DNA of 64,000 nt from Dehalococcoidia bacterium (GTDB taxonomy: Bacteria > Chloroflexota > Dehalococcoidia > Plut-88900), in assembly GCA_965197585.1 (NCBI GenBank), contig OZ240215.1, positions 928,001 to 992,000 on the forward strand, in the 5' to 3' direction. Positions 46,536-46,700 of the stretch are shown here, in pieces. Positions within the stretch are counted from its first letter, which is position 1; each line of letters opens with the position of its first letter. The position numbers and the translations under genes were made by a program. The notes beneath the pieces were generated by a model. That model had not been told where the DNA came from, searched no databases, and saw only the letters and a list, made by a program, of their open reading frames with translations.

Positions 46536-46700
46536 GTTATCCCTTTCTTGCAGGTACGGGTTGTTTGACCCGGGCAACTGTACGGGCTTAGATGAGAGAG
46601 GGTGCGGCGGCACAAGCTAAGACTCGGTCTTGAAGGACCACGATTCCTACGGCCTGCCGCACCCGAACAGCCTAACTCTATCACCGTTGCGTCACACAAG
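45566..46700 (-). mobile_element. IS110-family element (IS621-like) bounded by CT cores
   Basis: Minus strand: gagggat-CT-tgtgtgac...cacagttg-CT-aggac. Removing the element restores a family-2 REP. Confidence 0.88.
46540..46670 (-). ncRNA. Predicted IS110 bridge RNA
   Basis: Two stem/internal-loop modules with guides AGGAATC and GTCTTAG (target) and ACAGTTGC and CAAG (donor) that match this element's target site and ends. Confidence 0.8.

Follow-up and report, generated by a model that had tools for sequence, protein, structure and literature searches.

A probable IS621-type bridge RNA in the left end of an IS110-family element at a REP-like repeat of a Dehalococcoidia bacterium

The element, its gene and its place in a host repeat

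The window analysed here is a stretch of 64,000 nucleotides from a Dehalococcoidia bacterium (GCA_965197585.1, contig OZ240215.1, positions 928,001 to 992,000), and positions are those of the window unless a contig is named. It carries on its minus strand an insertion sequence (IS) of the IS110 family, one of seven full-length copies in the 3.43-Mb genome (G000), whose components are as follows.

45566..46700, minus strand: whole IS110-family element, 1,135 bp with the CT core counted at both ends, delimited by alignment of the seven copies with their flanks
46701..46722, minus strand: left target, the left half of the occupied REP ATTCCGAGGCTCCGCGAGGGAT, placed by copy alignment and REP search
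46699..46700, minus strand: CT core, left copy, at the boundary between copy and flank
45564..46535, minus strand: transposase open reading frame (ORF), 323 aa, with a DEDD/RuvC-like domain and a Tnp domain containing the catalytic Ser, assigned by Pfam, NCBIfam and PDB matches
45566..45567, minus strand: CT core, right copy, with its T opening the transposase stop codon TAG
45561..45565, minus strand: right target AGGAC, where the REP class 'AGGACTTGCCC' begins; in sister genomes it directly follows REP-CT

The limits of the element were set by aligning the seven copies together with 150-bp flanks; similarity begins within a short repeat on the left and ends a few bases beyond the right end. 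Lengths among the copies are 1135, 1134 and 1110 bp, and all seven have the layout GTCATTCCGAGGCYCCGCGAGGAAT-CT-[TGTGTGACG ... ACACAGTTG]-CT-A(A/G)(G/A)(G/A)C. Read on the minus strand, the left end of the window copy begins CT-TGTGTGACG (core 46700-46699), and the segment 46540-46700 stops just short of the ATG at 46535; the right end closes with ACACAGTTG-CT (core 45567-45566), after which comes AGGAC. A short CT core is thus found at both ends, without inverted repeats and without any duplication beyond the core. Two further IS110-family genes, 46-50% identical to the window gene, lie at G000:C1:1850573-1851478 and 2221960-2222598; one is open (a 388-aa frame) and the other is fragmentary with a TAG.

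The transposase is readily placed by its domains (PF01548, E 4.4e-21; PF02371, E 2.6e-16) and by the NCBIfam model NF033542, 'IS110 family RNA-guided transposase', which it matches at 221 bits against a cut-off of 140. Its alignment to the IS621 transposase (PDB 8wt6) covers residues 7-315 at E 4.7e-36, and in the phmmer alignment, where the 8wt6 chain numbering is offset by 2 from the published IS621 residues, all five of the IS621 residues D11, E60, D102, D105 and S241 have identical counterparts; the list of catalytic residues is that given in an excerpt of PMC11208158. The best match among solved structures is the ISCro4 transposase (PDB 9t56, E 3.7e-38, residues 6-316), in a comparison of the proteins. 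When the protein was compared with plasmids by tblastn, 2,005 records matched, the best at 50% identity, and none of the 60 listed was labelled IS621.

The stop codon TAG is composed of the T of the right core and two target bases, so that it overlaps the core and the right end holds no non-coding DNA at all. Completion of the stop codon by the target flank sets the window element apart from IS621. Built in this way (45564-45567, minus strand), the codon reads TAG or TAA at REP classes that start with A. Same-genus copies beside CT-GGGG have no stop there, and their frames run to 344-386 aa with copy-specific tails (loci L032, L042, L046, L050, L054 and L058).

The occupied repeat belongs to a REP-like family of about 27 bp with 132 genome matches at five or fewer substitutions to its 24-nt unit. 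Its 5-bp stem, ATTCC/GGAAT, has undergone compensatory change (one pair is T-A in 87, C-G in 35 and otherwise in 10 of the 132), and its right-hand classes are AGGAC (25), AAGGC (16) and GGGGC (15), plus others. Mapping of the other copies to REP sites, as the first-pass annotation had proposed, placed all seven in the same REP position. In genome G000 the REPs are mostly on the plus strand from about 1.0 to 2.5 Mb and mostly on the minus strand at about 0.5-1.0 and 2.75-3.0 Mb, switches which suggest a replichore or transcription-direction bias.

Unoccupied counterparts of the insertion site were sought in nine genomes of the genus, with the 386-bp right flank of the element as query. The orthologous right flank is joined directly to a REP in G001 (88% identity) and G003 (94%), with neither IS present; the G001 site reads ...GTCATCCCGAGGCCTCGCGAGGGAT-CT-AGGACTTGCCC. 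Between the empty and occupied sites, the sister sequences being ...GGGAT-CT-AGGAC, only CT is held in common.

The second IS is an IS481-like element of 1,056 bp (46723-47778, plus strand) that directly abuts the IS110 element within the same REP. Its transposase (46787-47770) has rve domains and matches IS481 best among NCBIfam models, at 183.9 bits and below the cut-off of 224. The element is accompanied by a 5-bp direct repeat GGAAT at 46718-22 and 47779-83, about 20 copies of it occur in the genome, and 17 of the 132 REP units adjoin one of its ends. This one REP family is thus a landing pad for two unrelated IS families. In a genome of the same genus, a 49%-identical IS110 relative (L052, G003:C7 at about 2.08 Mb) lies inside an IS481-like transposase gene; its flanks match window 46980-47040, at CTTCCAC-CT-GGGGCC. 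Downstream of the IS110 element, the window carries ORFs of 95, 67 and 798 aa (42542-45469, minus strand), which resemble, in that order, a metal-sensing repressor of the CsoR type, a small protein that binds metal and a heavy-metal P-type ATPase.

The two-loop RNA of the left end

The 165-nt left end lies directly upstream of the transposase gene. The 146 nt from a -10-like box to the ATG are predicted to form two stem-loops with a large internal loop in each, and the features assigned to them are these.

46675..46680, minus strand: -10-like TAGAGT, a sequence motif
46600..46664, minus strand: target-binding loop (TBL), with a 9+3 bp outer stem and bulged A, an internal loop and the inner hairpin GGTC/GACC, from fold and covariation
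46642..46648, minus strand: left target guide (LTG) AGGAAUC, in the same sense as REP t2-t8 (AGGAAT + C), pairing with the bottom strand
46617..46623, minus strand: right target guide (RTG) GUCUUAG, 7 nt, pairing with top-strand CT-AAGAC
46615..46616, minus strand: TBL handshake guide CU, whose C can pair with donor d7 = G, in the IS621 register
46541..46586, minus strand: donor-binding loop (DBL), a CCC/GGG outer stem and an inner hairpin, from fold and covariation
46574..46581, minus strand: left donor guide (LDG) ACAGUUGC, 8 nt, corresponding to right end ACAGTTG plus the first core base
46547..46555, minus strand: right donor guide (RDG) ACCUGCAAG, matching IS621 A157-G165 position for position
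46545..46546, minus strand: DBL handshake guide AA, whose first A can pair with target t7 = T

The stems are present in the window copy as GGGTGCGGC (46656-46664) opposite GCCGCACCC (46600-46608) and as GGTC/GACC (46626-46639). Taken as a single sequence, the fold has an unremarkable energy (z -1.58, with 16 of 200 shuffles folding equally well). Its conservation was assessed in 16 left ends aligned with MAFFT independently of any structure: five of the seven own copies, two from the same genus, seven from other genomes of a 41-genome search, and the remainder from further relatives. The structure so assessed comprised 24 pairs taken from the window copy, itself one of the 16 rows. Paired cells amount to 97.1%, against 36-51% after the partners have been shifted by 1-3 columns; both sides have changed in 11 of the 24 pairs, against 4.7 in shuffles, and none of 500 shuffles reaches the observed values. 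Such two-sided changes affect 7 of the 12 pairs of helix 1 in the TBL and 3 of the 5 pairs of helix 4 in the DBL. At the weakest pair, 129/144 (CG in 7 rows, UG in 6, other in 3), G144 never varies, in agreement with the conserved unpaired G at the equivalent place in the IS621 structure as described in part of PMC11208158.

These data bear on whether the left end encodes a guide RNA at all. It might instead be a region of attachment recognised by protein, or a 5' untranslated region, in which the resemblance of the loops to the target and donor would stem from homology of sites at the DNA level, and the unremarkable single-sequence energy speaks for such a reading. Nevertheless, the stems are kept by compensatory substitutions, which are relevant only to RNA; the guides covary with the flanks in a strand-asymmetric manner (same sense on the 5' side, reverse complement on the 3' side), as in the solved IS621 complex; and the protein family has been experimentally shown to need RNA. 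We therefore hold this alternative to be very improbable.

A different kind of guide RNA is conceivable in principle. Members of the IS1111 subgroup (seekRNA; IS4321/IS5075) share the protein superfamily and likewise undergo RNA-guided, site-specific insertion into repeats, and their guide RNA is encoded downstream of the gene. An IS1111-type element with a seekRNA downstream of its transposase would account for the superfamily and for site-specific insertion into a repeat, but the right end of the window element, in contrast to that subgroup, is devoid of non-coding DNA and leaves no space for such an RNA. Moreover, the structured RNA is upstream of the gene and the best protein matches are bridge recombinases of the IS110 subgroup, and we give this possibility almost no weight. 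The stretch is, with high probability, the left end of an IS of the IS110 family (IS110 subgroup) that encodes an IS621-type bridge RNA directly upstream of the gene of a DEDD/Ser recombinase.

A search of 45300-47000 against Rfam 15, with E values up to 10, matched no bridge-RNA family. The only notable hit was to sX15 (RF02234), a small RNA of the Xanthomonadaceae, on the opposite strand (46528-46674, plus strand) and over the whole model, at E 0.0067 and 31.4 bits, below the gathering score of 55. According to an excerpt of the sX15 source paper, sX15 and asX7 are complementary and plasmid-borne, with 10 homologues in Stenotrophomonas maltophilia. The sX15/asX7 pair may be an IS110 bridge-RNA locus.

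Guides, targets and the donor joint

The guide register of IS621 is given in excerpts of PMC11208160 and PMC11208158. There, an LTG of 9 nt is written in the sense of left target and core, with the bottom strand as its pairing partner, whereas an RTG of 4 nt (7 when extended) pairs with the top-strand core and right target; the LDG has 8 nt, the RDG consists of A157-U158, two flipped U, G161 opposite dT12 and C162-G165, and handshake guides beside the RTG and RDG pair with position 7 of the other DNA. The TBL of the window element has the same orientation, its 5' side in the sense of left target plus core and its 3' side complementary to core plus right target. On the 5' side, U-AGGAAUC-G/A is set against the target GAGGAAT-CT, with a mismatch at the first base of the LTG; opposite the second core position all members of the clade have G or A, and more distant relatives have U. 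All four guide strings of the first-pass annotation recur at their minus-strand places: ACAGTTGC at 46574-46581, CAAG at 46547-46550, AGGAATC at 46642-46648 and GTCTTAG at 46617-46623. It had also been right that AGGAATC matches the REP, exactly at 36263-36269 and with one mismatch at the occupied site GAGGGAT-CT, beyond the mismatched first position. Its comparison of GTCTTAG with the flank GTCCTAG likewise stands, the latter being the reverse complement of the AGGAC flank plus CT; with the occupied right flank CT-AGGAC, the RTG forms one rU:dG wobble.

Whether guides follow flanks more broadly was evaluated in 34 related loci (30 from the 41-genome search and 4 from a further search) parsed by regular expression. 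The permutation test excluded five unparsed loci (L037, L039, L040, L071 and L072) and two mis-anchored ones (L069 and L070) and counted one duplicate flank pair once, giving 26 unique insertions out of the 34 loci with 12 guide types. Cognate matches average 5.0 of 7 on the left and 4.27 of 5 on the right, against non-cognate values of 2.34 and 1.71, respectively. The observed sum of 241 was reached in none of 20,000 permutations of guide types, the maximum being 217. By eye, two of the excluded loci also match: at L071 the RTG expects CTCGGGG and the flank is CTCGGGG, and at L072 CTGTTAT is both expected and found; L037 matches at 6 of 8.

Candidate targets were scored at every CT in the genome over 11 informative positions, with rG:dT and rU:dG counted as wobble. 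No site in the genome has 11 Watson-Crick matches to the window guides, and at least 53 sites attain 11 of 11 when wobble is counted. The best 22 (10 Watson-Crick and 1 wobble of 11) all fall at the REP GGAAT-CT junction, 19 of them in canonical REPs and 3 in REP variants with a longer loop. Together with a guide/flank match that exceeds all 20,000 permutations, this upholds the earlier claim that the RNA is aimed at the host REP. The empty target predicted in the same annotation near 54480 fares less well: the site reads as quoted (GAGAAAT-CT-AAGCG), but under the same rules applied by hand it has 8 Watson-Crick matches and 9 of 11 with wobble, while at least 53 sites reach 11. On these letters it is a possible but poor target.

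Among close kin, the right guide has been naturally retargeted between REP subclasses, guide and flank changing together. The window copy and copy c1486093, which are 99.1% identical, have RTGs GUCUUAG and GCCUUAG beside CT-AGGAC and CT-AAGGC, respectively, the flank having changed at the paired position, and same-genus copies with 81-82% protein identity have the RTG GCCCCAG beside CT-GGGG(T/C). In a separate observation, two related elements, L036 (G029) and L052 (G003), have part of their own left end repeated in tandem ahead of them; the partial copy breaks exactly after the LTG-encoding DNA plus CT, that DNA being the left target sequence. Judged by these junctions, the partial copies look as if an element had recombined into guide-coding DNA belonging to another copy; a preprint of 2026 on 'half-match recombination' is perhaps relevant to them.

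The second loop matches the joint of right and left ends with a discontiguous RDG. As the first-pass annotation held, ACAGTTGC equals right end ACAGTTG plus core C, and CAAG complements the left end CTTG. Against CT-TGTGT, CAAG pairs with CTTG, a G:T12 wobble follows, CU is looped out and AC pairs with G13-T14. Covariation is seen here as well: d13 is G with RDG C in the window clade and A with U in relatives, d11 is A with U in L036, and in L047 G occurs in both LD and LDG. Of the 15 rows with a right end, 14 pair the TBL handshake C with d7 G. At the DBL handshake position, A accompanies a T at t7 and G accompanies a C: A:T or G:C pairs form in 13 of 16 rows, one row has a wobble and two miss, with L069 mis-anchored.

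When right end is joined to left end, TTG (45568-45570), CT and the T at 46698 give TTGCTT, a 17-nt spacer and TAGAGT, an arrangement that exists in the circular form only and that had been correctly read before. Excision would yield a circle whose joint would create a sigma-70-like promoter, and this promoter would drive an RNA of about 130 nt. The second loop (ACAGUUGC and AC..GCAAG) would pair with the circle joint ACAGTTG-CT-TGTGT, and the recombinase would then swap strands at CT, aided by the handshake bases. A second promoter-like sequence, CTGTCA-17-TACAAT (9 of 12 consensus positions; 46721-46749, minus strand), spans the IS481-like end and the first REP bases and points into the left end; by its match to consensus, the bridge RNA might also be transcribed when integrated.

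Mobility of the family and of the window copy

Three of the seven copies, each at its own REP site, show no difference along 1,110 bp (100% identity), which indicates that the family has moved recently in this genome; two of the three share flanking similarity, so at least two independent recent events are implied. The ORF is intact in five of the seven copies, and the other two have a TAG at codon 14. On the basis of such identities, the IS110 family of this genome is recently active.

The standing of the window copy itself is a separate matter. It could be a genuine bridge-RNA element that is now dead or dormant, its RNA still readable and only the three identical sister copies live. No other copy is identical to it; the closest (99.1%) is interrupted by an in-frame TAG at codon 14 and the next (94.4%) by the same TAG, and the live-looking trio, with a 315-aa protein and the RTG GCUCUAG, belongs to a subfamily only 87.7% identical to it. 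Its occupied site, in addition, mismatches its LTG. Against this, neither its ORF nor any catalytic residue, stem or guide is damaged, its RTG pairs with the adjoining flank, one wobble included, and the insertion is missing from the orthologous site of two sister species, so that the copy is not ancient. We regard a dead window copy as unlikely, if well short of negligible, and consider from these features that the window copy is itself probably active. The earlier description of the element as likely active fits the intact ORF and the recently mobile family, and for the window copy it is tempered by the lack of an identical twin and the premature stop of the nearest copy.

Public sequencing runs offer a limited view of these events. 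Two RNA-library runs of one study (X15 and X16) yield contigs of 1,017 and 1,088 nt that cover 45709-46722 and 45641-46722; they differ at 35 and 40 letters and derive from a related copy, and as DNA may be present in an RNA library they are no proof of transcription. None of the 5 listed joints in public-run contigs links 45566/7 to 46699/700, so that neither a circle joint nor an excised site was observed; assembled contigs are prone to drop rare forms, and the result weighs neither for nor against.

Comparison with known systems

The assignment of the element to the IS621 architecture in the first-pass annotation is borne out by the NF033542 score (221 bits), the match to 8wt6 (E 4.7e-36), the covarying two-loop fold and the published guide register. 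The two elements both have a CT core and a REP target, and their proteins (IS621 in PDB 8wt6-8wt9) are both DEDD + Ser recombinases, although many aligned positions differ and they are distant overall. Each has a left-end RNA with target-binding and donor-binding internal loops, an 8-nt LDG, an RDG in which two bases are looped out and G wobbles with dT at d12, and handshake positions. The promoter that IS621 carries across its circle joint has a putative counterpart in the motif TTGCTT-17-TAGAGT of the window element. The IS621 joint is ACAGTAT-CT-TGTAT, and that of the window element, ACAGTTG-CT-TGTGT, is near-identical.

The differences largely concern compactness and the target guides. Non-coding ends total about 167 bp, compared with 298 bp in IS621, and the RNA is predicted to be about 130 nt, compared with about 177 nt, the IS621 values being those in an excerpt of PMC11208160. 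The -10 box ends 10 nt before the TBL stem, leaving no space for a 5' stem-loop, unlike in IS621. The RTG is naturally 7 nt instead of 4 nt; the LTG pairs over 7 nt (t2-t8) with the second core base unpaired, and is thus weaker here than the 9-nt guide of IS621; and the 5' side of the TBL internal loop measures 12 nt instead of 13 nt.

It is tempting to see in the clade a naturally minimal bridge-recombinase system (1.11-1.13 kb, about 167 bp non-coding, no 5' stem-loop, a 7-nt RTG and an LTG with the second core base unpaired) that is mobile today in an uncultured genus of the Dehalococcoidia and whose near-identical paralogues record single-base retargeting of the right guide between CT-AAGGC, CT-AGGAC and CT-GGGG. 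We advance this reading tentatively, and with more doubt than confidence; if true, the clade would supply a new scaffold of compact size and document how guides evolve in nature. Bridge recombinases are under development as programmable tools for DNA insertion, inversion and excision, and the element adds a compact orthologue to them. The 99%-identical paralogues with co-changed guide and flank, the retargeted same-genus copies and the empty sister sites form a natural data set, and for genome annotation the element accounts for seven repeats.

Excerpts of PMC12288879 and 10.64898/2026.03.19.712850 describe ISPpu9 and ISPpu10 of Pseudomonas putida as multi-copy IS110-family elements in REP or identical intergenic repeats; in ISPpu9 the small-RNA gene is downstream of the transposase, whereas the RNA of the window element is upstream. 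REP targeting by IS110, thousands of predicted bridge-RNA orthologues and longer natural RTGs are already in print, as an excerpt of PMC11208160 attests. Our literature search found no paper linking IS110 to Dehalococcoidia, and the combination of IS110 bridge RNA with Chloroflexota returned general coverage only. The 'distant lineage' of the first-pass annotation is the Dehalococcoidia, and the kind of element has been known since 2024. What is particular here is the Dehalococcoidia host, the compactness, the unpaired second core position in the LTG and the clean natural retargeting among paralogues; the known mechanism of bridge recombination is unchanged by the window element.
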